A DNA stretch of 64,000 nt from an uncultured Clostridia bacterium (GCA_947591055.1 CANQCW010000002.1:96-64095); one strand, 5' to 3'. Counted from the stretch's first letter, positions 8,497-56,822 are shown. Numbers and translations: made by a program. Notes: generated by a model from the letters alone, not told the origin.

Positions 8497-8717
8497 AAAA
8501 ATAACATAATATAAAAATGGAGGGGTAAAACAAATGAAATGTAAGAAAATACAAGAAAGAAAAAAGATTAATTTAAAGTTGCAAAATAAGGAAAAAGTAC
8601 AAAAATTAAAAGAAAAAGGAATAACTTTAATAGCGTTAGTAGTAACAATAATAATATTGTTAATTTTAGCAGGAGTAACATTAAATATGGCATTATCAGG
8701 AGATGGACTATTTAGCA
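8492..8717 (+). repeat. direct repeat copy B (5' UTR + leader/TM coding cassette)
   Basis: Near-identical to 6992-7218. Confidence 0.85.
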
Positions 8718-9764
8718 AAGCAAAATTAGCAGCAAATAAATATAATGTAGCAAGTGAACAAGAAGTATTACAACAACAAATAATAGAATATCAAATGGAT
8801 AATAGTGTAGCTAAAATAGGAGAAAAATTGTCAAACAATTCAACAGATAATCCTAGTTGGACAATAATAAAGCTAAGAAATGAAAATAAACAATATGGAA
8901 CAAATTACAACTATGTAAAAGAAGGAACAGAAATAGAGGGTTATGGAACAACAAAATACAATTGGGTAATAAATTATGAAAATGGAGAAGCTATTCAATT
9001 AGATGATTATATAAAAGTATCATCAGGAGAGGGAGTGTCAGTAACAGAAAATTTAGAGTTAAATATAAATCCAAAAAGTATGGCAAATTTAGATACACTT
9101 GGTTCAGGAGTAACATTTGTAAATGGACAAGACTCGAGTTCTTCAGGAGAGTTTTTAAAAGGTTCTTACATAGAATTTGATGGAAAAGATGATTATTTAA
9201 GACTTGATGGAGTCAAAGTTGATAATAATGGAGGAATCACTTTTGAAATTTTTGGAAAGAAAAATGATAATAAACAAGTTTTTTCTCTAAATAAAACTTT
9301 ATTTGAAGAAGATAAAATTGCTTTGCGTGGGACAACGTTTAGAAGTCATTTTAATCAAAATTGTTTCAGTTGCTGTTTAGGTAATGGAAAAGCTCGGTGG
9401 TGAATTTCAAAGTAAGTCTTCAAATTCTGAACATTGGATGGATTTTGATGGAGAAAATTTGATAAATAGTGAAGATGGAAGTTTTTATTTGACAATGACA
9501 TTAAACTTAGAAGATAATGCAGTTAGTTTATATTCTTTAGGCTCATGTATAGGTAAGAATATATGTAATGAAAATTATCTGGATTCAACGTTAATTTGTG
9601 ATAGTTCTATTCCATTTACCGTTGGTGTTCTTGTAAGCGGTTCCACGATGAATATTCAGTACAGTAATTTTTTACTATACGGATGCAGATTATATGACAG
9701 AGTGTTGAGTGCAACCGAAATTAAGCAGAATTATGATGCTTCTAAAAATCTATTGGATTCCTAG
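8534..9764 (+). pseudogene. pilin-like surface protein paralogue P2 with C-terminal LamG-like domain, split by a frameshift near 9381-9401
   Basis: Same leader/TM as P1. ORFs 8534-9403 and 9384-9764 overlap by 20 nt in different frames. A single concanavalin/LamG-like domain spans both: GSYIEFDGKDDYLRLDG...GGITFEIFG upstream and LYGCRLYDRVLSATEIKQNYDAS downstream. Confidence 0.6.
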
Positions 9765-11575: not shown

Positions 11576-11782
11576 ATGAAAAGAGAAGAAGGTGTTACAT
11601 TAATTACAGTAGCAATTACAATTATTATTTTAGGATTATTAGCAGCATTACTTGTTAAAGCATCAGTAAAAGGAAATATTTTGGAAGAATCTAATGGAAT
11701 AAAAGAAAATGTCCTTGATATGATTGATGACACGAAAGATAAAACAAAGAATATTGAGCAAAAATGGGATGGCATAATATAA
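11576..11782 (+). CDS. 68-aa mini pilin-like protein
   Basis: MKREEG-VTLITVAITIIILGLLAALLV resembles the KG-ITLIALVVTIIILLILAGV segment of P1-P3. RBS AGGAGAG lies upstream. Confidence 0.45.
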   Translation: MKREEGVTLITVAITIIILGLLAALLVKASVKGNILEESNGIKENVLDMIDDTKDKTKNIEQKWDGII

Positions 11783-12961: not shown

Positions 12962-12987
12962 GAATATGATTGAAAGGAGAATTTAAA

Positions 12988-14151
12988 ATGGAAATTCAAA
13001 AATTTACATTAAATGAAACATCATATTTTGGAGATGGAGCAAGAAAAGTGCTACCAGATGAAATAAAAAAGAGAGGATTTAAGAAGGTCTTAGTAGTTAC
13101 AGATGAAGCTTTATATAAAGCAGGAGTAAGTGAAAAAATAACAGATTTATTAGATGCAAATAATATTAAAAATACAGTATTTTATGATGTAAAACCAAAC
13201 CCTCCAATAGAAAATGTATTAGAAGGTGTAAAAGTTTGCAAGGAATTTAAAGCAGACTTAATAGTAGCAATAGGTGGAGGTTCAAGTATTGATACAGCAA
13301 AGGGAATATCAATAGTTATGACTAATCCAGATAGAAGTGATATAGTATCATTAAATGGCCCATCAAATACAAAAAATAAAGGACTTCCTCTTATAGCAAT
13401 TCCAACGACAGCAGGAACAGCAGCAGAAGTTACAATAAATTATGTAATAACTGATCCAGAAAGAAAAATAAAAATGGTATGTGTTGATGAACATGATATA
13501 CCAATTATGTCAATAGTAGATACAGAATTAATGGAAACAATGCCAAAATCAGTAGCATCATCAACAGGTATGGATGCATTAACACATGCAATAGAAGGAT
13601 ATATAACAAAATCAAAAAATATAATGTCTCAAATGTTCTCAATGAAGGCAATAGAATTAATATATGATAATTTAGCAAAAGCAGTAAATGAGAAAGATAA
13701 AGAAGCCATTGGAAAAGTAGGACTTGGACAATATATAGCAGGTATGGCATTTTCAAATGTAGGACTTGGAATAGTGCACTCAATGGCACATCAGTTAGGA
13801 GCAGTATATGATACTCCACATGGATTAGCAAATGCAATATTATTACCAACAGTAATGGAATTTAATGGAGAAGTTGTATATGAAGACTTTAGAGAAATAT
13901 TAATACACGCATTTCATATAGATGCAAAAGATTTTACAAAAGAAGAAGTAATAAAAACATTTTGTGAAACAATAAAAAATCTTTCTTATGATGTAGGAAT
14001 TACACAAACAATAAAAGATGTAGGAGTAAAAGAAGAAGACTTTAAAATGCTTGCAGAAAAAGCAATGGAAGACCCTTGTAAACCAGGAAATCCAAGAGAA
14101 GTAACAAAAGAAGACTTTATAGAACTTTATAAAAAAGCGTATAGAGAATAA
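12988..14151 (+). CDS. iron-containing (group III) alcohol dehydrogenase
   Basis: GGGSSIDTAKG NAD-binding motif and metal-ligand His cluster (THAIEGY, VHSMAHQLG). RBS AGGAGA precedes the ATG at 12988; the track start at 12970 is TTG. Confidence 0.85.
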   Translation: MEIQKFTLNETSYFGDGARKVLPDEIKKRGFKKVLVVTDEALYKAGVSEKITDLLDANNIKNTVFYDVKPNPPIENVLEGVKVCKEFKADLIVAIGGGSSIDTAKGISIVMTNPDRSDIVSLNGPSNTKNKGLPLIAIPTTAGTAAEVTINYVITDPERKIKMVCVDEHDIPIMSIVDTELMETMPKSVASSTGMDALTHAIEGYITKSKNIMSQMFSMKAIELIYDNLAKAVNEKDKEAIGKVGLGQYIAGMAFSNVGLGIVHSMAHQLGAVYDTPHGLANAILLPTVMEFNGEVVYEDFREILIHAFHIDAKDFTKEEVIKTFCETIKNLSYDVGITQTIKDVGVKEEDFKMLAEKAMEDPCKPGNPREVTKEDFIELYKKAYRE

Positions 14152-14165
14152 TGTATGTTAAAATA

Positions 14166-14203
14166 AAAAGTTGTGTATCTTTTAAAGTAGGCACAACTTT
14201 TTC
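14166..14203. terminator. rho-independent terminator after adh (bidirectional)
   Basis: AAAAGTTGTG-16 nt-CACAACTTTT followed by T residues, with an A-run upstream. Confidence 0.65.
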
Positions 14204-14245: not shown

Positions 14246-14440
14246 TTTTATTAATGTAAAAACTTAATAAAAATTATTATATTAAAAAAATAGCATAATA
14301 TAGGGAAAAATTCAATAAAATAAAAATTAAAAGTTTGTAATAATTTAATAAAAAATGAAAAGTAAAAATCTTATAAAAGGCTTGAGTAAAGCTGATTATA
14401 AGATTTTTTACTTTTTTATTAAGTTTTTACATTAATAAAA
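14246..14440. promoter_or_regulatory. putative invertible promoter element (inverton) 3, OFF orientation
   Basis: Perfect 28-bp inverted repeats 14246-14273 / 14413-14440. The core holds a minus-strand promoter, TTGAAT (14315-14310)-17-TGCTATTTT (14295-14287), and a terminator-like hairpin at ~14364-14409. Confidence 0.6.
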
Positions 14441-14472
14441 ATTACATAATGTGGAGGGAAGGTATAAAACAA

Positions 14473-15123
14473 ATGAAATATAAGAAAATACAAGAAAAAA
14501 ACAAAATTAATTTACATTTACCAAATAAGAAAAAAGTGCAAAAATTAAAAGAACAAGGAATAACATTAATAGCATTAGTAGTAACAATAATAATATTATT
14601 AATATTGGCAGGAGTAACAATATCACAAATAGCAGGAAGTAATGGATTGTTCCAAAGAGCAAGACAAGCAGCTGAAAAATATAAAAATTCGGCAGAAGAT
14701 GAACAAACTAAAATAGGTATGACAGAACAATATGCAAACGATTTTTCAGTATTAGGAAAAAATGCAGGAGAAAATGAAGAAGAAGATAAACCAGAGGAAG
14801 AAGAAAAAATTTATAGTACTACGTCTTATAATATATCTGCAAGTTCAACTGAATTTAAATGTACGATAGATATAAGAGGTCTTGTCCCTAGTGATTGGTT
14901 AGCAAGCCTTACAAGAGATAATATAAAAGTTGAGCCAGGTCCACTTGAAAGATGGGATAGATTTTATGGTAAATATACTCGTAGAGAATCAACATATTGG
15001 GATTATAGTGGAGGCGTAATTACTGTCCATTTAGCAGCTGGTTGGAGTACGAGTGGAGGAATACCAACAGTTTCATTAGCTCCCAAATGGGTTAAAGTAT
15101 CTGTAAAAAATACACCATGGTAA
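14473..15123 (+). CDS. pilin-like / signal-anchored surface protein paralogue P3
   Basis: MKYKKIQEKNKINLHLPNKKKVQKLKEQG-ITLIALVVTIIILLILAGV then GSNGLFQRARQAAEKY. The C-terminal domain is unrelated to P1/P2. The ATG at 14473 aligns with the P1/P2 starts. Confidence 0.6.
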   Translation: MKYKKIQEKNKINLHLPNKKKVQKLKEQGITLIALVVTIIILLILAGVTISQIAGSNGLFQRARQAAEKYKNSAEDEQTKIGMTEQYANDFSVLGKNAGENEEEDKPEEEEKIYSTTSYNISASSTEFKCTIDIRGLVPSDWLASLTRDNIKVEPGPLERWDRFYGKYTRRESTYWDYSGGVITVHLAAGWSTSGGIPTVSLAPKWVKVSVKNTPW

Positions 15124-15170
15124 AAGAATATAGAATAAAAAATAGAAATTGAATAAATTTGCTTATATAA

Positions 15171-15196
15171 AATCCCCTAGAAAAATCTAGGGGATT
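15171..15196. terminator. stem-loop between convergent P3 and asnS
   Basis: AATCCCCTAG-aaaaat-CTAGGGGATT, a 10-bp stem. Confidence 0.6.
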
Positions 15197-15199
15197 GTT

Positions 15200-16591
15200 T
15201 TAAAATTCACAATTTTTAGGTGTACGTGGATAAGGTATAACATCACGAATATTTTGCATACCAGTTACATACATCATAAGTCTTTCAAATCCAAGACCAA
15301 ATCCAGAGTGAGGAACACTTCCGTATCTTCTTAAATCTAAGTACCACCAATAATCTTTTTCATCTAAGCCTAAATCCTTCATACGAGATGTAAGCTTATT
15401 TATATCTTCTTCTCTTTGACTACCACCAATTAATTCTCCAATTCCAGGAACAAGAAGGTCAGCGGCTGCAACAGTTTTTCCATCACTATTTTGTTTCATA
15501 TAAAATGCTTTTATATCCATTGGATAATCAGTAACAAATACAGGTCTTTTGAATATTTTTTCACTTAAATATCTTTCATGTTCTGTTTGAATATCAACTC
15601 CCCATGAAACTTTATATTCAAATTCATCATTATGTTTTTCCAATTCTTTTATTGCATCTGTATAAGTTATTCTTCCAAAAGGTTCATTTATTGTAACTTT
15701 TAATTTTTCTAAAAGACCAGGTGCTATAAACTTATCAAAAAATGTCATTTCTTCAGGAGCATTTTCTAAAACATAAGAAATTACGTATTTTAGCATTGCT
15801 TCTTCTACATCTAAGCAATCAGTTAAATCTGCAAAACACATTTCTGGTTCCATCATCCAAAATTCAGCAGCGTGTTTTACTGTATTAGAATTTTCAGCTC
15901 TAAATGTTGGTCCAAAAGTATAAATATTTCTAAAAGCTTCAGCATAAGTTTCACCTTCAAGTTGTCCACTTACTGTAAGATGAGCATTTTTTCCAAAGAA
16001 ATCTTTAGAATAATCTATTTTTCCATTATCATCTTTTGGAATATTATTAAAATCAAAAGATGATACATTAAACATTTCTCCAGCACCTTCACAGTCGCTA
16101 CCTGTAATAATTGGAGTATTTACATATACAAATCCTCTTTCTTGAAAGAACTTATGAATAGCATAACTTAGCATACTTCTTACTCTAAATACAGCATTAA
16201 ATGTGTTTGTTCTTGGGCGAAGATGAGCTACTGTTCTTAAAAATTCAAAGCTTGTATTTTTCTTTTGAATAGGATAATCTGTGCTTGATAAGTTATATAT
16301 TTCAATTTCAGTTGCATGTATTTCAAATGGTTGTTTTGCATTTTCTGTTTTTACTAAAGTTCCTGTTACTATAATAGATGAACTAATAGTTAACTTGCAA
16401 ATATCTGCAAAATTATTTAATTTGTCATCAAAAACAATTTGTATATTATTAAAGAAAGTTCCATCATTTAATTCTATAAATCCAAAAACTTTAGAATTAC
16501 GCATAGTTTTAACCCAACCAGCAACTTTTACTTCTTTTTCTATATACTTTTCTGTATTCTTAAATAAATCTTTAACTAAAATATAGTTCAT
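15200..16591 (-). CDS. asnS: asparagine--tRNA ligase
   Basis: 463 aa. N-terminal OB anticodon-binding domain ([27 protein letters not shown]) and class II core motifs ([19 protein letters not shown]; GFGLGFERL). Confidence 0.92.
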
Positions 16592-16680
16592 AAATATCCC
16601 TCATTTCTAAAATAATATTTCCAATTATACAATAAATTATTTAAAGAAACAATATTTTAAAGACATTTTTAAAATTTAAT

Positions 16681-16716
16681 AAAAAAATACTAGTAAATTT
16701 TGCAATTTACTAGTAT
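16681..16716 (-). terminator. rho-independent terminator of the 618-aa membrane protein gene
   Basis: ATACTAGTAAATT-ttgc-AATTTACTAGTAT, a 13-bp stem. On the minus strand it is followed by a T7 run. Confidence 0.75.
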
Positions 16717-49112: not shown

Positions 49113-52100
49113 ATGAAAAAAATAAAAACTTTATTAATTCTAACTTTGATGATTGTATGTTTACCACTTACAGCTTTAGCTGCTGAAGGTATAACATTAG
49201 ATATAAATAAAACAAATTTAGAAGTAGGAGATGAAGTAACAGTAAGTGCTAAAGTATCAAGTGATTTAGATGCTTATGCATTAATTGCTACTTTAAAATA
49301 TGATACAAACGTTTTTGAAACAATAGATGATTCTAATTTTGTAGTCCAAGATACATCAAGCATTAATTATAGCCAAAATACTAACAAATTTGGAATAATC
49401 AATAAATCTGGTAAAGTGAGCACGGGAGGAACCCTTTTTACTGTAAAATTAAGGGTTAAAGATGATGCAAATGTAGGAAATACAAATATTGCTTTAACCA
49501 ATATTTCTTATTCAAGTGGTACTGGAAAAAAGACTTTAGATATGGTGTCTACTAAGGTATTTGTATCAAGAGATGCCAAAGAAGGAGAGACTATTCCAAT
49601 ACAAAATGAAAATATAGTAACTGAAGATGTGGAAAATGAAGTAAAAGCAGTTTCTAATGTTCCTGTTATGAGTACTCTTCTAGTAGCAATAGTCATTTTA
49701 TTGGCAAGCATTATATATATAAAATTAACGAAAAAAAGCGTAAAATCTTTTTACTTTTTAATTGCTTTAGAAACTGTATTAATAATTACCGAATCTGCTT
49801 TAGTTATTGGAAATATTAATAAAAAAGATGTTAATAAAGATGGTATAAATGATTATAATGATGCAGAAGAAATTATTAAATATTTAATTAATATTGAAGG
49901 AACTGATGAAGACTTAAATTTATTTGATGGTAATAATGTAAATAGCACTAACAATAATAATGTAGAGCAAACTCAATCAAGTGTGTCTAGTAGCAATAGT
50001 AATTCTAATAATAGACAAAATCAAACAAATCAATCTAATAGCAATAGTTCTAACAATAACAAGGTAACAAATGGTTCTAGTAGTAACAAACAAACTCAAA
50101 CAAATTCAAACGGTGGCAATTCTAATTCAAACAATGGGAATGCTAATTCTAACGTAAATAATGAAAGTGCTAATTCTAATACAAATAATAACGAAAATAA
50201 TGGCAATGCCAATTCAAATGCAAATAGTAGAAATTCTAATGCAAATAATGGCAATGCTGATTCTAATACAAATAACAACCAAAATAATGGCACAAATAAT
50301 AATACAAATAACAACACAAGCTCTGATAAAAATACTAATACAACTACAAATGATGATAATGAAAATAACAATGAAACAGTTGAACCAAATCCACCAAATA
50401 AAGAAGATAAACCTTCAGAAGATTTTGACGTCAATAATGATGGAAATGTTGATATAGATGATGCAGGACAGTCAGCTGAAGATACAACTAATAAGTCAAA
50501 AGTAATTTTAAAAGAAAAAATTGAGGAAAATAGTTCATATAGTCAAAAAGGTGATATAAATATTAAATTTACAGCAGATATTACACCTGTTGGTACTAAA
50601 ATCACTGAAGCAAAAATAAATAGCGAATATTATGAAACAGCATTAGAAGGTGATGTTTATACTGCTAAAATAAATAATATAGAAAAAGCTGGTAAACACT
50701 CATTTAACATTGAAGAGGTAGTTTTAGATAATGGTAAAAAAGTAAATACAAATTTAAAAATTGAAAAAGATATCTTAAAAGATGCACCTTACATCAATAA
50801 ATTTAATTTAGATGACCAAAAAGGAACTTTAAGTTTTGATGTAATAGACGAAGAAGATGCATTTATTGATGGCACAGTAACCATTAAAAGAGATGAAGAC
50901 TTAGTTAAGACTGAGAAAGTTAAATCTAAAGATTCAACAGTTATAACAAATATTCCAATAGAAGATGATGAAACATATTTAATTGAAATAATTGGAAAGT
51001 ATGATCTTGATAGTGATAAAAATGATCAAAAAAATGTTTACAATACAGCATTGTTTTCTCATACATTTATGATTGGAGGAGACTATAATTTCAATTTAAC
51101 TGATGCAAGTATTACTGATGTTGTTAAAACTGAGGAAACACCAGTTTTAAAATTTAGAAGTTCTAATACTAAAAACAAAATAATTGAAAATGCAAATTTG
51201 AAAAATGATGGTGAAGTTATTTCAAATTGTGAAGTTACAAAATTAGATAATGATAATTATGAAATAAATCTTAATGGTGCAAAAATGACACCTGGTATTC
51301 ACACAATTACACTTGATAGTGTAAATATGGATACATTAAAATCATTTACAAATAAGCAAGATTTTAATGTTAACTCTTTAACTTATACTGTACTAAAAGA
51401 TGCGCCTTCAGTTGAAAATCTTACAGTATCAGATAAAAGCAGTGAGAAAAAGATTAGTGCACAATTTAAATTAATTGATAAAACACAAGCTATCACAAAA
51501 TTAACAGTAGCTTTAGTAGATTCTGCAAATAGAATAGCAGGAAAAACAGAAATAGCAACTGAAAGTCTTACAGACAAAGAAAACATTAAAACAGAAGTGC
51601 CATATGGAAATAATACTGATGGTCGCTTCAAAGTTAAAGTTTTAGCAAATTATGAACTTGCTGATAAATATGTATATACAGACGAAAGCTTAGCAGAAAA
51701 AGAAATTCTAACACATAGTGAAGAAGACATTTCAATAGAAAGCATATATGTAGTAGATAACAGTAACAAACAAATAGATAGTTATGCTAAAAAAGGTCAA
51801 AAAGATTATCAAATTTTCTTTAAAGTAAATGTAAGTCAAAAGATTCAAAATTTAGCTGTTGCAAATCATGGCAATGGTAGAGCATATGGAAGAGTATCTG
51901 CAATAAATATAAATGGATTAAATTATCCAGCAAGTCAAGTAGGAAAAAATGATTTTACTTCAAAAGTATTTCTAACTATACCAGAAGAATCTGGAGTTAT
52001 AGAATTAAAGGCAAATAGAGTAGAACTTGCAAGTGATGGATATTACAAAATATTTAATGATTATTTCTCAGTACCAGAAAAAACTATGAAAATAGAGGTA

Positions 52101-55100
52101 TTAAAAGATGCACCAAAAATTGAAAATCTTTCTGTAAGTGAAAATTACGAAAATAGCAGTAGTACATTTAACTTTAATGTAGTACTAGATGAAAAAGAAA
52201 AAGCAGATGGCTTTACAGATGGTATTGTTGAGTTAAATGGAAAAACTCAAGAAATTCATAGTGGAGAAAATTCTGTAACATTTACAGGTATTGAAAAAGA
52301 TAAAACTTTTGATTTAATATTTAAAGGCAGTTATGACTTAGATACAGATGAACTTAATACAGTAGACGGAGCTGACAAAAATCAAACCCAAAATGGTGTG
52401 ATATATAAAGTTAAATATGGTTTATATAGTGATAAAAAATATGAAAATATTGCACTAGATAAATGTGAAGTTTTAAGTGAAAAGAATAATAAATATTTTG
52501 AAAAAAATGAGAAAATAAAACTTAACTTTGACATCACTGGAATAGATGAAGATTTAGGAGCAGTAGCCAAAAAAGTAGTTATAGATGATAAAGAATATGA
52601 TATATCTAAAACAGATGATATATATAGCTTGTTATTAGATGGATATAGCAGTTCAGGTAAAAAAGAAATAACTATTACAGATATTATTTTAGACAATGGA
52701 AGAGAAGTAAAATTAGCTACACCTTATACTTTCGAATTTGAAGTTTTAAAAGATATTGTAAAAATAACAGACTATGGATTTGAAGACTTAGGCAGTTCTA
52801 TAGATACATTATTAGATATAAAAGATAGTGATAATTCTTTGGTTGGTAATGTAAAAATAGAAATAAAAGATGAGCACAATAAAATTTTATACAATGATAT
52901 TTTCAAAGATGATATAACATTTGAGAAAACTGAAAACACTGTACGTTACTATATTACTGTAACAGCTGATTATGATAGAGATATTGACAAAAATAAAAAT
53001 AGTGAAAATTATAATGAAAATGTAATCTTATTAGATGAGGTTATGTCTTTAGATGAAAATGCGATAGAATTTAAAAATATTACAGATATTAATTTATATA
53101 AAGTTGTAAATAATAAAGGATATGATGAAATAAAACTTATTGACGAAGTTGATGTTGAAGATATAAAAACTAATAAAGACAGTTATTTCGTAGAAGTTAA
53201 AATGGATTCTTTACCTACATCTGAAGCAAAAATAAGTGAAGTTATAATTGAAGATGATACACTAATTTTGCTACTTGATTATAAATTTACAACAATAGAT
53301 AATACTCATGCACCTGAAATAATTAGAATAAATTATGGAATTATAAAAGATGGAAAAGCTAAAAACAACTATCATCCATATTCTGCATTTACTGAATTAA
53401 TTGAAGAATTAAATAGCGGAAATAATGTAACTTTAACAAAAGATTATGATGCAAGTAGCATAAGCACAAGTGAAAATACTTATATTACAAGTGATTATGC
53501 AGGAACTCTTAATGGTAATGGACACACTATAAAAAATCTATCAAAACCTTTATTTAATAAAATAACAGGAAATGTTGAAAACTTAAAGCTTGTAGATATT
53601 AGTTTAAGCTCAAACGGTCAAGGAGCTTTAGCAAATACAACTGAAGGAGCTACTATCAAAAATGTTTTAGTTGATAAATTCTATAAAAGTGGAACAAACA
53701 CTGATGGAAATGGATCTTTAATAGGAATTGCTAAAAAATCTGCAATAGAAGGCTGTCGCTCAACAAATGTAAACCAACATATCACAGGTAGTCAACAGCA
53801 AAATAGTATATTTATAGGAAGAACAGAAGATGGTACTACTGTTAAAAACTGTTATGCACAAGGTACTTTGCAAGGTGGATGGAACTATACAAATGCCTTC
53901 ATAGGAAATGCTTTATCAAGTACAATTACTAATAATTATGTTAGTGCAACAATTAATGCATCAGGATATAATGCTAATTTCGCAGATGCATACAATAACA
54001 AAGCAACTGTATATGAAAATAATATATGTATCGGACCAAATAGCTTTAGTGGCAGTTATAGAGAATTAAAAAATAATTATATTTGCCCATCAGATAATAG
54101 CAAAAAAGAAGAAGCTGGAGTTGAATATATAACTCAAGAAGAAATTACAGAAAATCTATTTAAAGAAGAAGCAAAATTTGATGAAAGTATTTGGAGCATA
54201 AAAGAAACTTCTTATAACAATTTACCAATATTAAATATTGAAATTGAAGAAGATAAATATAGTGATATACCAGATTATGATGAATCTTTAAGCAAATTAT
54301 ATAACAATTTGATGAAATTAATGCCTTACTATAATATGCAAAAAATTGTTGATACTGCAAAATCTGTTACAGATACTAATTTATTAAATAAAGAAATTAA
54401 ATATATTTTACCAGTAGATAAAAATGGAAGTATAGTAACTTATTTAACTACAAGCAATACTAATAAAATAAGTAAATTAAAAGTAATATTTACTGATGAT
54501 ACTAAATGTGAATATGATGTTAAATACGATAAAATGTATGATATGGTTGCAACATATAGAATTAATAATTTAGGAATTGATTACAACTACAAACATTATG
54601 TAATTAATAGCGAATCTCAACTTGTAAGTAATATAGTTAATTATTTAAATGGATTGGATTATACAACCAACTTAGATATATTAACAACAAATGCAAGTTC
54701 TAGATTATACAGAGATTGTTATAATGAAGTAACTAAAAAAGAATTAAAAGATTTTGTACTAAAATATTTGTCAAACAGTAATTATACTAATACAACAAAC
54801 GATAATAATATTAACAATTATCTTGAAAGAGAAATTAAAAAAGATAAAAGAATAGAAAAAGTTTTATATACTTATAATTATTTTAGAAGATTCTATGATT
54901 TAGACGTAGATGGCATGAAAATATATGACTTTGTAATGTTTAATATGGACTGCTTTGATGAAAAATTAACACCTGAAAAAATAGCAGATTTATATTTAAC
55001 AGATAAAACAGGAGCTAGTTTCGATACAGCTAGAACAAATTCAAGCTATATAAGTCTTTTAAGTAATTATACAAAACTTGATACTTTACCTAAATTTTTA

Positions 55101-56822
55101 GAATATATAGTAACTAAATTTAGCAATCATGATATGAGTAAATGGACACATAATCAATTTAAAGGAATAATCACAGAATTTGGAGTAGATGGCCATCCAG
55201 AGATTAAGTATACTTTATGGGATCACTTTATCTCAACGACAAATGATGAAATTTTAAGACAATTCTTACCTATGATGACATTACCTGAAACTGCAGCTTA
55301 TGTAATATCTAGTCCAGTACAATATGCAATAGGTGCTCAAAGAACTTATATGAAAAATCCTAATGACCCAGAAGAAGTAAAACAATTTATGGAAAAACTA
55401 AGCAAATACACAACAAGGATGAAAAGATATTTCGAAACAACATATGCTATATTAGCAGATGCAGATATACTTAATAATGCGCTTATATATCATATAGATA
55501 AAAGAACAACTAAAACAGAAACAGGAGGATCTGTATTTAATACACAATTTACAACAACAGAACCATTTCATAAAAACTTCGTTGAAGCAACAGGCCTTTG
55601 GTCAGCAGCTGCAGGCGTAAATGCAGCAGCATGGGGACCACGTCTAGAGTGGCAAGTTGCAGGAATACTTGATAGTACACTTGCAGAAGAAGGAAAAAAT
55701 GACACATCACATGTAACATTTAGAACTTGGTCTCATGAATCAGCTCACTTAATAGACTCAAAAGTTTTCCTAAAAAATAATGGAAGAAGATTTGATGCTG
55801 GTGGTGAAGACTATGCTGATGCGTTCTTTATGCAAGCATTTGAAGAATTTGGAATAGTAATGAACTTATCAATGAGATTTAATACAGATGTCAAAGTAGG
55901 AACAAACTTTACTGTTGATAGAATAAATAGTAAAGACAAAATACAAGACTATTATAGAAAAGTTTTTGAAACTATATATTTAATGGATTATATTGAAGCA
56001 CAAGCATTTTTGGAACTTGATTTAGAAGAACAAAAAGCAGTCGCAGTTCAAGCATCTTATCCAAATGAAAACGAAAAACTTCCTAATGGAAAAACATATT
56101 CAACTGATGAATATGCAAAATATCGTGCTAGACAAACAACTAGATATACAAGATTAAATTCAATATCTGGATTTAATACAAAATTAAGTACAATAAATGA
56201 TTTAATTGATAACAAAATTCAATTAAGATCAGGAGCAGTTTCAATTCAAACACTTGGAGATAATAGATATGGAGGAGAAGGATTTAACGTAGTTCATTGG
56301 TATCAACCAAGCAATCCAGATGGTAGACCTGATTCATATTCATTGAAATGGCTAAGTTATGAAATGTTAGGATATAAAGGCTATGACAAAGGTTTAGTAG
56401 AATATGCAAGTAATATAAATTATGAGCGTCGCCCAATTTATTCAAGTTTTGAAAAACCTGAAAATGGAACAACAGATGTTAACTACAAATCTGATAAAAT
56501 GGCTCTTGAAAAGATTTCAGATGGAGAATATTCAGACTTTGATACTTATAAAAAAGCAAGATTTGCTGAAGTTGCAGAAAAATTAGAAAGACTTGATACT
56601 ACTATAAATGTAAAAGAATATGTACAAAAATTCTATGAAGCATTGAAAAAAGATGCTGAATTAGCAAAAAGTAATGAAAAAACTGAATTAACAAATTCAA
56701 GTGCATTAAGAAGTGAAATTTACTATACATTAAAGAATAAAACTGATGACTTCAGAGATGAAATTTATAAAAGTACAAAACAACAAGATGTATCTAATTT
56801 AAAAGTAGATAAAGATGAATAA
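49113..56822 (+). CDS. 2569-aa multidomain surface protein with M26-like zinc metalloprotease domain
   Basis: Signal peptide (..LPLTALA-AEG), cohesin-like domain, TM segments, dockerin-like Ca loops (DVNKDGINDYND; DVNNDGNVDIDD) and an Asn-rich linker. Four ~205-235-aa modules begin with (V/I)LKD. A GLUG-like motif (GTLNGNGHTIKNL) is present. HESAH lies at 55734-55748, with Glu 20 residues after the second His (55806). Confidence 0.7.
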   Translation: MKKIKTLLILTLMIVCLPLTALAAEGITLDINKTNLEVGDEVTVSAKVSSDLDAYALIATLKYDTNVFETIDDSNFVVQDTSSINYSQNTNKFGIINKSGKVSTGGTLFTVKLRVKDDANVGNTNIALTNISYSSGTGKKTLDMVSTKVFVSRDAKEGETIPIQNENIVTEDVENEVKAVSNVPVMSTLLVAIVILLASIIYIKLTKKSVKSFYFLIALETVLIITESALVIGNINKKDVNKDGINDYNDAEEIIKYLINIEGTDEDLNLFDGNNVNSTNNNNVEQTQSSVSSSNSNSNNRQNQTNQSNSNSSNNNKVTNGSSSNKQTQTNSNGGNSNSNNGNANSNVNNESANSNTNNNENNGNANSNANSRNSNANNGNADSNTNNNQNNGTNNNTNNNTSSDKNTNTTTNDDNENNNETVEPNPPNKEDKPSEDFDVNNDGNVDIDDAGQSAEDTTNKSKVILKEKIEENSSYSQKGDINIKFTADITPVGTKITEAKINSEYYETALEGDVYTAKINNIEKAGKHSFNIEEVVLDNGKKVNTNLKIEKDILKDAPYINKFNLDDQKGTLSFDVIDEEDAFIDGTVTIKRDEDLVKTEKVKSKDSTVITNIPIEDDETYLIEIIGKYDLDSDKNDQKNVYNTALFSHTFMIGGDYNFNLTDASITDVVKTEETPVLKFRSSNTKNKIIENANLKNDGEVISNCEVTKLDNDNYEINLNGAKMTPGIHTITLDSVNMDTLKSFTNKQDFNVNSLTYTVLKDAPSVENLTVSDKSSEKKISAQFKLIDKTQAITKLTVALVDSANRIAGKTEIATESLTDKENIKTEVPYGNNTDGRFKVKVLANYELADKYVYTDESLAEKEILTHSEEDISIESIYVVDNSNKQIDSYAKKGQKDYQIFFKVNVSQKIQNLAVANHGNGRAYGRVSAININGLNYPASQVGKNDFTSKVFLTIPEESGVIELKANRVELASDGYYKIFNDYFSVPEKTMKIEVLKDAPKIENLSVSENYENSSSTFNFNVVLDEKEKADGFTDGIVELNGKTQEIHSGENSVTFTGIEKDKTFDLIFKGSYDLDTDELNTVDGADKNQTQNGVIYKVKYGLYSDKKYENIALDKCEVLSEKNNKYFEKNEKIKLNFDITGIDEDLGAVAKKVVIDDKEYDISKTDDIYSLLLDGYSSSGKKEITITDIILDNGREVKLATPYTFEFEVLKDIVKITDYGFEDLGSSIDTLLDIKDSDNSLVGNVKIEIKDEHNKILYNDIFKDDITFEKTENTVRYYITVTADYDRDIDKNKNSENYNENVILLDEVMSLDENAIEFKNITDINLYKVVNNKGYDEIKLIDEVDVEDIKTNKDSYFVEVKMDSLPTSEAKISEVIIEDDTLILLLDYKFTTIDNTHAPEIIRINYGIIKDGKAKNNYHPYSAFTELIEELNSGNNVTLTKDYDASSISTSENTYITSDYAGTLNGNGHTIKNLSKPLFNKITGNVENLKLVDISLSSNGQGALANTTEGATIKNVLVDKFYKSGTNTDGNGSLIGIAKKSAIEGCRSTNVNQHITGSQQQNSIFIGRTEDGTTVKNCYAQGTLQGGWNYTNAFIGNALSSTITNNYVSATINASGYNANFADAYNNKATVYENNICIGPNSFSGSYRELKNNYICPSDNSKKEEAGVEYITQEEITENLFKEEAKFDESIWSIKETSYNNLPILNIEIEEDKYSDIPDYDESLSKLYNNLMKLMPYYNMQKIVDTAKSVTDTNLLNKEIKYILPVDKNGSIVTYLTTSNTNKISKLKVIFTDDTKCEYDVKYDKMYDMVATYRINNLGIDYNYKHYVINSESQLVSNIVNYLNGLDYTTNLDILTTNASSRLYRDCYNEVTKKELKDFVLKYLSNSNYTNTTNDNNINNYLEREIKKDKRIEKVLYTYNYFRRFYDLDVDGMKIYDFVMFNMDCFDEKLTPEKIADLYLTDKTGASFDTARTNSSYISLLSNYTKLDTLPKFLEYIVTKFSNHDMSKWTHNQFKGIITEFGVDGHPEIKYTLWDHFISTTNDEILRQFLPMMTLPETAAYVISSPVQYAIGAQRTYMKNPNDPEEVKQFMEKLSKYTTRMKRYFETTYAILADADILNNALIYHIDKRTTKTETGGSVFNTQFTTTEPFHKNFVEATGLWSAAAGVNAAAWGPRLEWQVAGILDSTLAEEGKNDTSHVTFRTWSHESAHLIDSKVFLKNNGRRFDAGGEDYADAFFMQAFEEFGIVMNLSMRFNTDVKVGTNFTVDRINSKDKIQDYYRKVFETIYLMDYIEAQAFLELDLEEQKAVAVQASYPNENEKLPNGKTYSTDEYAKYRARQTTRYTRLNSISGFNTKLSTINDLIDNKIQLRSGAVSIQTLGDNRYGGEGFNVVHWYQPSNPDGRPDSYSLKWLSYEMLGYKGYDKGLVEYASNINYERRPIYSSFEKPENGTTDVNYKSDKMALEKISDGEYSDFDTYKKARFAEVAEKLERLDTTINVKEYVQKFYEALKKDAELAKSNEKTELTNSSALRSEIYYTLKNKTDDFRDEIYKSTKQQDVSNLKVDKDE
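49930..50400 (+). repeat. Asn/Ser-rich low-complexity coding repeats
   Basis: Imperfect reiteration of NSN(A/S)NNGNANSN units, seen in DNA as aataatggcaatgc(c/t)(a/g)attc(a/t)aat. Confidence 0.8.

Follow-up and report, generated by a model that had tools for sequence, protein, structure and literature searches.

A probable invertible promoter, at present OFF, ahead of a pilin-like gene, and its sister copies in uncultured rabbit-gut Clostridia

Why should a gene be preceded by a promoter that points away from it? The window, a stretch of 64,000 nucleotides from an uncultured Clostridia bacterium, poses this question at three paralogous genes. The element considered here, switch 3, lies between an Fe-ADH gene (adh, 12970-14151) and the gene for P3, a pilin-like protein of 216 residues (14473-15123, plus strand). 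It consists of inverted repeats that enclose a predicted promoter directed away from P3. We regard it as likely, and with considerable confidence, that switch 3 is a recombinase-driven ON/OFF invertible promoter (inverton), now in the OFF orientation.

The window DNA is low-GC (~27%) and chromosomal, from a spore-forming Firmicute; its genes include pheT, asnS, recG, hrcA-grpE-dnaK-dnaJ, gerA-type genes, and spoIIP. It also holds a long same-strand cluster (26253-46389), cell-envelope polysaccharide or teichoic-acid-like in content: LytR_cpsA_psr, a sugar transferase, GT2 enzymes, a Wzy-like protein, and LicD, along with IspD-like and flippase genes, UDP-galactopyranose mutase, and a glycyl-radical enzyme with its activase. 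In a giant ORF of 2569 codons (49113-56822), the C-terminal region is similar to zinc metalloproteases of the streptococcal Zmp group (NCBIfam ZmpA, E = 3e-48, though far under the family cutoff).

Read along the gene strand, the elements of switch 3 are: the gene-distal arm, IRL; the opposite-strand promoter; a hairpin; the gene-proximal arm, IRR; a leader with its RBS; and the ATG. For the 195-bp unit, a repeat search returned two 28-nt arms, 100% complementary with 139 nt between them, just as the initial annotation had described. IRL (14246-14273) reads as a recombination core site, made up of the outer half-site TTTTATTAAT (14246-14255), the spacer GTAAAAA (14256-14262), and the inner half-site CTTAATAAAAA (14263-14273). 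IRR (14413-14440), its inverted partner, comprises the inner half-site TTTTTATTAAG (14413-14423), the spacer TTTTTAC (14424-14430), and the outer half-site ATTAATAAAA (14431-14440); its spacer is the reverse complement of that in IRL. The full arm is an 11-7-11 dyad: TTTTTATTAAG, GTAAAAA, CTTAATAAAAA.

The predicted sigma-A-type promoter lies on the minus strand (14286-14314), pointing away from the gene (OFF). Its -35 hexamer is TTGAAT (14314 to 14309) and its -10 hexamer TATTTT (14291 to 14286), with a 17-nt spacer that ends in TGC (14294 to 14292), an extended -10. The initial annotation had recognised this promoter, but its coordinates were off by one; its further reading, that the promoter faces the adh terminator, stands, and that terminator hairpin (14166-14203, plus strand) folds with z = -4.4. 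The switch 3 promoter matches 8 of 12 consensus positions and is absent from the list returned by a generic promoter scan. Its -10 is weaker than the family consensus; switch 1 has a better version, TTGATT-17-TATATT, likewise with TGC. Between promoter and IRR, and abutting the latter, is a long, A/U-rich hairpin (~14357-14412, plus strand), between an A-run on its 5' side and a T-run on its 3' side. The terminator-like hairpin claimed at the outset does fold, at -23.4 kcal/mol (z = -6.75) on the plus strand and -18.1 kcal/mol (z = -6.13) on the minus strand, and looks like a putative bidirectional terminator or insulator. Beyond IRR, the 5' leader and conserved proximal flank (14441-14472, plus strand; ATTACATAAT) contains the RBS GGAGGGAAGG at 14453-14462, and the P3 ATG follows at 14473, 32 nt past the arm.

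Two sister units precede P1 (7035-8162, 375 aa) and P2 (8534-9403, 289 aa), and both are OFF. Switch 1 (6807-6999) has arms of 27 nt at 6807-6833 and 6973-6999, 100% complementary, 139 nt apart, and identical in sequence to those of switch 3, as had been claimed. Switch 2 (8302-8502) has diverged arms (8302-8341 and 8463-8502, 85%) in which the half-sites are conserved and the spacer allele, TTAAAAG, is the same on both sides. The three units with their flanks align at 84% identity. All three show one polarity relative to their own gene, with an RBS and a paralogous gene behind each, so the common architecture and orientation first noticed by eye is borne out. The 26-nt arm, with three or fewer mismatches permitted, occurs four times in the window, against 0.00 expected from 100 shuffles.

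The following model is proposed. The arms would be inverted copies of a recombinase core site, in which 11-bp dyad half-sites surround a 7-bp crossover spacer. A recombinase encoded elsewhere, most probably of the tyrosine class, would swap strands within the spacers and thereby turn the 139-bp inner segment. In the OFF state, the sigma-A promoter would fire away from the gene, and the gene-side hairpin should stop read-through from upstream. In the ON state, the promoter would face the RBS and the pilin-like gene, and the hairpin, now upstream of the promoter, would insulate it. Dozens of paralogues (sharing a common 5' module, with variable C-terminal domains, some of them fn3/Ig-like) would each have their own copy of the switch, so that a population would display varied combinations of putative surface proteins.

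Is this arrangement peculiar to three genes? A scan with a slightly degenerate arm pattern, over one genome per species, returned 85 stretches. These hold ~80 further unique copies, almost all in MAGs of "uncultured Clostridia" from the rabbit gut. The sequence retrieved from a single MAG, Lapin-015__bin75, amounts to 263 kb and contains at least 43 paired switches, with more arms at contig ends. The 43 copies with a recognisable pilin-like paralogue all have the same inner polarity, and the ATG typically lies ~37 nt outside the arm; essentially all of the ~80 copies sit at a fixed distance and polarity upstream of a gene start. JGI metagenome contigs, searched with the arm pattern alone, gave just 44 single chance matches, the family being absent from that collection. 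Viral contigs gave only two chance matches, blastn of the switch region against plasmids and phages gave none, and no Rfam family matched.

Short units with terminal inverted repeats invite another explanation, namely a MITE-like non-autonomous transposon whose position before genes is incidental. The dimensions would suit such an element: terminal inverted repeats of 28 bp, a length of ~195 bp, and dozens of copies per genome. Its distribution would not, because the copies lie at ~37 nt and in fixed polarity upstream of paralogous genes. Moreover, conservation extends from the unit through the proximal flank and ~240 nt into the coding sequence, but is lacking in the distal flank; the flanks are asymmetric rather than direct repeats, with no pattern of target-site duplication; and there is no likeness to plasmid, phage, or viral contigs. 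A transposon would also leave unexplained why spacers covary between arms beside an adjacent base that differs. The fixed placement, together with conservation of the proximal but not the distal flank, excludes MITE-like scatter, and a transposon origin is in our judgement scarcely credible. The initial annotation had named such scatter, with no heterogeneity of orientation, in a genome-wide enumeration of arms, as the outcome that would count against a switch; the enumeration gave the opposite, copies linked to gene starts. What has been duplicated is thus the switch along with the 5' part of its gene, rather than an inverted-repeat element alone.

Two further features of the copies deserve mention. 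First, one locus recovered from different samples (L149:6238-6427, L150:2768-2957, L152:1570-1759, and L151:1-200) has identical flanks and a mosaic inner segment, with SNP clusters confined to the hairpin half or to the promoter half; this suggests gene conversion among paralogous switches, or else chimeric contig ends. Second, contigs of independent assemblies often stop inside a switch or a few bases from one (at window positions 8471 in L137 and 8482 in L136; at the ends of L155 and L157; at the starts of L160 and L161). These stops were considered as a sign of mixed orientation and rejected, since paralogous repeats account for the breaks equally well. The switch family does account for the fragmentation of assemblies of such genomes at these genes.

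Alignment of 50 copies reveals which parts of the cassette are maintained. Inside the cassette, conservation is found in the -35 (on the firing strand, CTTGAT), in the TG with the -10 (TGCTATAT), and in the hairpin; both hexamers and the TG are the most conserved of all, giving the consensus TTGATT-17-TGCTATATT. The promoter spacer and the distal flank are unconserved, and the proximal flank is conserved. The conserved element, TTGAxT-17-TGnTATAxT, sits on the strand opposite the gene. For the hairpin, a model of 20 pairs over 76 copies has 87% of cells paired, compared with 42-59% when the 3' partner is slid; 17 of the 20 pairs have changed on both sides, and none of 500 shuffles reaches any of the observed measures. 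The hairpin covaries and outperforms both slides and shuffles, and is therefore selected as a structure. On the gene strand, 68 wobble cells are of G-U type and 28 of A-C type, a bias that strand composition could also produce. Confounded in this way, the excess of G-U hints at an RNA terminator that acts against read-through to the gene in the OFF state, and it was set aside as an argument for RNA function.

These patterns might be read without any inversion. The region could be fixed, with the arms serving as operators for a dimeric protein (in a repression loop, for example) and the hairpin as an ordinary terminator or insulator; flipped copies would then be rare evolutionary accidents of homologous recombination between repeats. 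An 11-7-11 dyad is typical also of repressor operators. However, a conserved promoter that points away from the gene, into unconserved DNA, would serve no purpose in a fixed region. The arms themselves provide a second objection.

Arm statistics were compiled from 76-78 unique switches, gathered with a pattern that leaves the spacer free. The 7-bp spacer is the same in both arms of 73 of 76 switches, yet at least 11 alleles occur across switches, and operators need no such identity. Mismatches between the two arms, by spacer position, number 1, 1, 1, 0, 0, 0, and 1 (of 78); switches in which both arms have a common non-consensus base number 17, 7, 2, 2, 0, 0, and 10 at the same positions. Immediately outside the spacer, in contrast, 49 of 78 switches have unlike bases in their two arms at position 14, usually T distally and G proximally, and 49 of 78 likewise differ at arm position 8. 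Identity limited to a freely varying 7-bp core is the mark of a strand-exchange (overlap) region; neither hairpin pairing nor operator function requires it.

The layout, two inverted half-sites around a spacer of the 6-8-bp class, here 7 bp, recalls known recombination sites. In lox sites, the spacer must match between partner sites and is otherwise free to vary, as in heterospecific variants. Like the loxP, FRT, and dif sites, the arms have two inverted binding elements around an asymmetric spacer of 6-8 bp, identical between partners. Unlike them, they have half-sites of unrelated sequence, and no Cre-, Flp-, or Xer-like protein was identified; the analogy is architectural only. The 7-bp width and odd-length layout point to a tyrosine rather than a serine recombinase, and on this reading of the site we moderately favour a tyrosine enzyme. 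The 29-bp site, with its probable crossover spacer mapped, offers a handle for finding that enzyme.

Neighbouring switches in tandem often differ in spacer (L007:46-3367; L059:149-6504; window 6807-8502), for example GAAAAAA, TTAAAAA, GAAAAAA. Different spacers occur in 12 of 17 neighbouring pairs, at most a hint, being not significant against the ~56% expected by chance. It is conceivable, though rather unlikely, that one trans-acting recombinase plays a lottery over more than 50 OFF-biased switches, with the spacer alleles acting as heterospecific sites like lox variants. Were this so, spacer alleles would let switches flip singly and would limit deletions and inversions between neighbours, an inherent protection of a kind that has not been described in other families of invertons.

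Where, then, is the recombinase? Among all ORFs of more than 100 aa in the window there is no recombinase gene. Across ~0.45 Mb of switch-bearing MAG loci plus the window, phmmer searches of ORFs with Hin, XerD, and FimB found none; these single-sequence queries are insensitive, and the Hin query missed genuine Resolvase-domain proteins. A motif search for the tyrosine-recombinase box II in the MAG switch loci also gave no match. The only recombinases seen were large serine ones on some ENA contigs (Resolvase and Recombinase domains, in some cases also Zn_ribbon_recom), encoded ~1.5-2.5 kb upstream of genes that have a switch: 354 aa at L149:3848-4912 and L150:378-1442; and 505-510 aa at L153:4360-5877, L154:2101-3633, and L155:3917-5434. 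The two types are 41% identical, and they look like mobile-element integrases beside strain-variable DNA.

The location of these genes, on several contigs, might nevertheless suggest an inverton driven by a serine recombinase (a Hin/Mpi-type invertase or a large serine recombinase) in place of a tyrosine enzyme, and Mpi of Bacteroides fragilis, a serine invertase, does control many promoters globally. But serine enzymes need identity only at a central 2-bp crossover, within a dyad of even length. The layout here is an odd 11-7-11, with covariation across the 7-bp spacer (positions 15-18, and 21), which fits the 6-8-bp overlap of tyrosine recombinases. Neither the window nor the MAG loci contain the serine recombinases just described, which moreover resemble mobile-element integrases. 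A serine enzyme therefore seems unlikely. The working assumption is a trans-acting enzyme of the kind exemplified by RecV in C. difficile or Mpi in Bacteroides.

On the inverton model, copies should exist in both orientations. Unique switches that can be oriented number ~68, of which ~66 are OFF and two ON. The first ON copy (L138:2727-2915, the same as L154:7241-7429; ENA sample ERZ27249337) has the order distal arm, hairpin, TTGATT-17-TATATT on the gene strand, proximal arm, RBS, and a pilin-like gene of 498 codons. Its inner segment matches that of switch 3 at 83% as reverse complement and at 60% in the same sense; the contig coverage is 3.7x. The second (L011:1691-1879, in Lapin-015__bin75) serves a gene for a small membrane protein. 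In a sister species the homologous cargo gene has an OFF switch (L003), whose inner segment matches that of L011 at 74% as reverse complement and 57% in the same sense. The T/G asymmetry of the outer half-sites in L011 stays with the flanks, on its normal sides, and the inner segment alone is reversed. This is what inversion through crossover in the spacer predicts.

The L011 locus also appears in other samples. Over ~1.7 kb, contig L160 matches L011 at 98.5% and contig L161 at 97.5%; both then part from it precisely where the proximal arm meets the inner segment. Their junction, (A)TTTTTTAC, is the hairpin-side end seen in all OFF switches; that of L011 is the promoter-side end. Of all the observations, this comes closest to both orientations at one locus; the OFF-type junction rests on the 7-9 nt at the contig ends of L160 and L161. 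The other contigs of the L154 locus end 8 nt short of the distal arm or are without the insertion. Strain-level presence/absence variation is evident there between L153 and L154, ~370 nt downstream of a 122-aa gene, and in one sample a different gene replaces the switch and its 498-aa pilin-like gene.

Elsewhere only OFF was found. The three switches of the window are OFF, and colinear with the window, in every assembly found to carry P1, P2, or P3. Exact-protein look-ups of P1, P2, P3, P0018, P0021, P0051, and P0068 returned only OFF copies or switchless loci, and those of P0146 and P0156 returned organisms without the switch. A search of JGI metagenome contigs for the ON junction gave no match, a result without weight given the family's absence there. 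A further copy, L070:343-528, has a flipped inner segment with no recognisable gene on either side, and its promoter runs into a terminator-like hairpin; it may be a decayed locus.

Could the ON copies be artefacts of assembly, and hence no evidence of inversion? The 3.7x coverage of the L138/L154 contig invites this suspicion, as does the frequency with which contigs end at or near switches, given that multi-k de Bruijn assemblers can mis-join across repeats. Yet the two flipped copies were assembled separately, in different studies. With arms of 28-29 bp, below the usual final k-mer of metaSPAdes, the junction k-mers should have existed in the reads; and in L011 the outer half-sites are in their normal places with only the inner segment reversed. 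An assembly origin for these copies is accordingly very improbable.

The fixed-region alternative fares only a little better. In its favour, ~97% of copies have one orientation, and no recombinase was found nearby. Against it, the flips are exact at the arms and place the promoter before an intact gene with its RBS, and the L011 locus shows both junction types in different samples. We judge a fixed, non-inverting region quite improbable, and retain the invertible promoter. Given ~66 OFF and two ON, the flips could be rare inversions that became fixed in evolution; the strong OFF excess also suggests that few switches are ON at one time. The larger claim of the initial annotation, that these are a dedicated inverton-like module and not chance palindromes, is supported by the ~80 copies, the conserved promoter, the covarying arms and hairpin, and the flipped copies.

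What would the switches control? P1, P2, and P3 are near-identical over their first ~80 residues and diverge thereafter. In P3, the shared N-terminus has a basic leader of 28 residues ending in G, followed by ITLIALVVTIIILLILAGV, a type IV pilin-like hydrophobic helix, and then an amphipathic helix; the C-terminal part is variable. Exact copies of P3 occur on four contigs, and its 827 relatives include none that is named or has a Pfam assignment. The profile PF07963 scores 16.5 bits with P3 (cutoff 21.2) and is sub-threshold in 12 of 22 relatives; NCBIfam returned no match to P3. The leader G is followed by ITLIA, so that position +5 is Ala, not Glu. The best PDB match to P3 is the N-terminus of MshA pilin (E = 0.21), and an AlphaFold2 model from a 22-sequence alignment is poor (pLDDT 48.7), with the N-terminal helices better than the rest. 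Several P3 relatives carry fn3/Ig-like domains. No prepilin peptidase or pilus assembly genes are among the window ORFs. From these sequence features, it is reasonable to call P3 a pilin-like putative surface protein, as a label rather than as an assignment to the type IV pilins. The switch family, if it flips, flags such proteins as probable host- or phage-exposed antigens.

Several observations concern the cargo more widely. The 498-aa protein behind the L138/L154 ON switch was not recovered from the protein database. Some cargo is not pilin-like: the switch at L145:14114-14303 is followed by genes for an LRR protein and a sortase (14332-15909 and 15976-16701), and a membrane protein of ~155 aa is the cargo at L011:1184-1651 and in L003 (gene left of 1440). 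In other organisms, the genes for homologues of this membrane protein stand behind an ordinary fixed promoter and ahead of those for large fn3/Big_2 proteins. Many pilin-like genes are overlapped at the 3' end, by 14-41 nt, by an ORF of 120-175 aa (window 9384-9764; L145:8747-9271; L147:8905-9363; L149:7354-7872), at times with faint Glug or Laminin_G_3 matches; they may represent C-terminal domains separated by a split or a frameshift, or else two genes whose arrangement is conserved. The window also contains, between a YlbF/YmcA-type gene and a FIST-domain gene, a 68-aa ORF (11576-11782) that is without a switch; it begins MKREEG|VTLITVAITIIILGLLAALLV and has a weakly N_methyl-like N-terminus.

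If the switches flip, these uncultured low-GC Clostridia of the rabbit gut devote dozens of singly switchable promoters to one pilin-like family. Few of the single-family inverton sets known would be larger, and this one would parallel, in a Firmicute, the variation of mpl in Mycoplasma and of capsules or fimbriae in Bacteroides. The general understanding of invertons is unchanged by it.

By architecture, the closest analogue is the mpl (P35) lipoprotein family of Mycoplasma penetrans. As there, a large multigene family, here of putative surface proteins, would be controlled by individual invertible promoters. The mpl invertible unit, as Horino et al. are said to have described it in 2003, is ~135 bp, similar in size to the switch here; mpl inverted repeats are ~12 bp, unlike the present arms of 28-29 bp with their 11-7-11 dyad. 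Of the 38 mpl genes of M. penetrans, which are distributed over several loci, most turn ON and OFF one by one as the promoter beside each is inverted; recombinases of the Xer (tyrosine) type are the candidates (PMC2268961, PMC10502178). The systems differ also in host (a spore-forming gut Clostridia, as against a Mollicute); in cargo (a pilin-like N-terminus, as against lipoproteins); and in the several spacer alleles and covarying hairpin of the present cassette. Sequence kinship is not to be expected from this architectural likeness.

Comparison with Clostridioides is instructive in a different way. The cwpV switch of C. difficile contains a terminator and no internal promoter, whereas the cassette here has both a promoter and a terminator-like hairpin. 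The C. difficile switches (flgB, cmrRST, cwpV, pdcB) are short sequences flanked by inverted repeats upstream of surface and motility genes, and RecV, a single tyrosine recombinase encoded elsewhere, serves several of them (PMC7446863, PMC9286219). There, however, seven unrelated switches have different repeats; here, one switch sequence has been amplified together with the 5' end of its gene.

The fimS element of E. coli is a single switch of 314 bp with 9-bp repeats and dedicated adjacent recombinases, and differs in this last respect from the present family, for which no adjacent recombinase was found. Both fimS and the Mpi-controlled loci of B. fragilis have a promoter inside the invertible segment, with surface structures encoded adjacently, and Mpi acts in trans on many loci (PMC2268961; via PMC11602134). 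The Bacteroides system resembles the present one in the placement of the promoter; it differs in that Mpi is a serine invertase with other repeat motifs. New in the present case are the lineage in which the switches occur, the protein family they precede, their number, and a clear 11-7-11 site with multiple matched spacer alleles, in what looks like a kind of phase variation that is already known.
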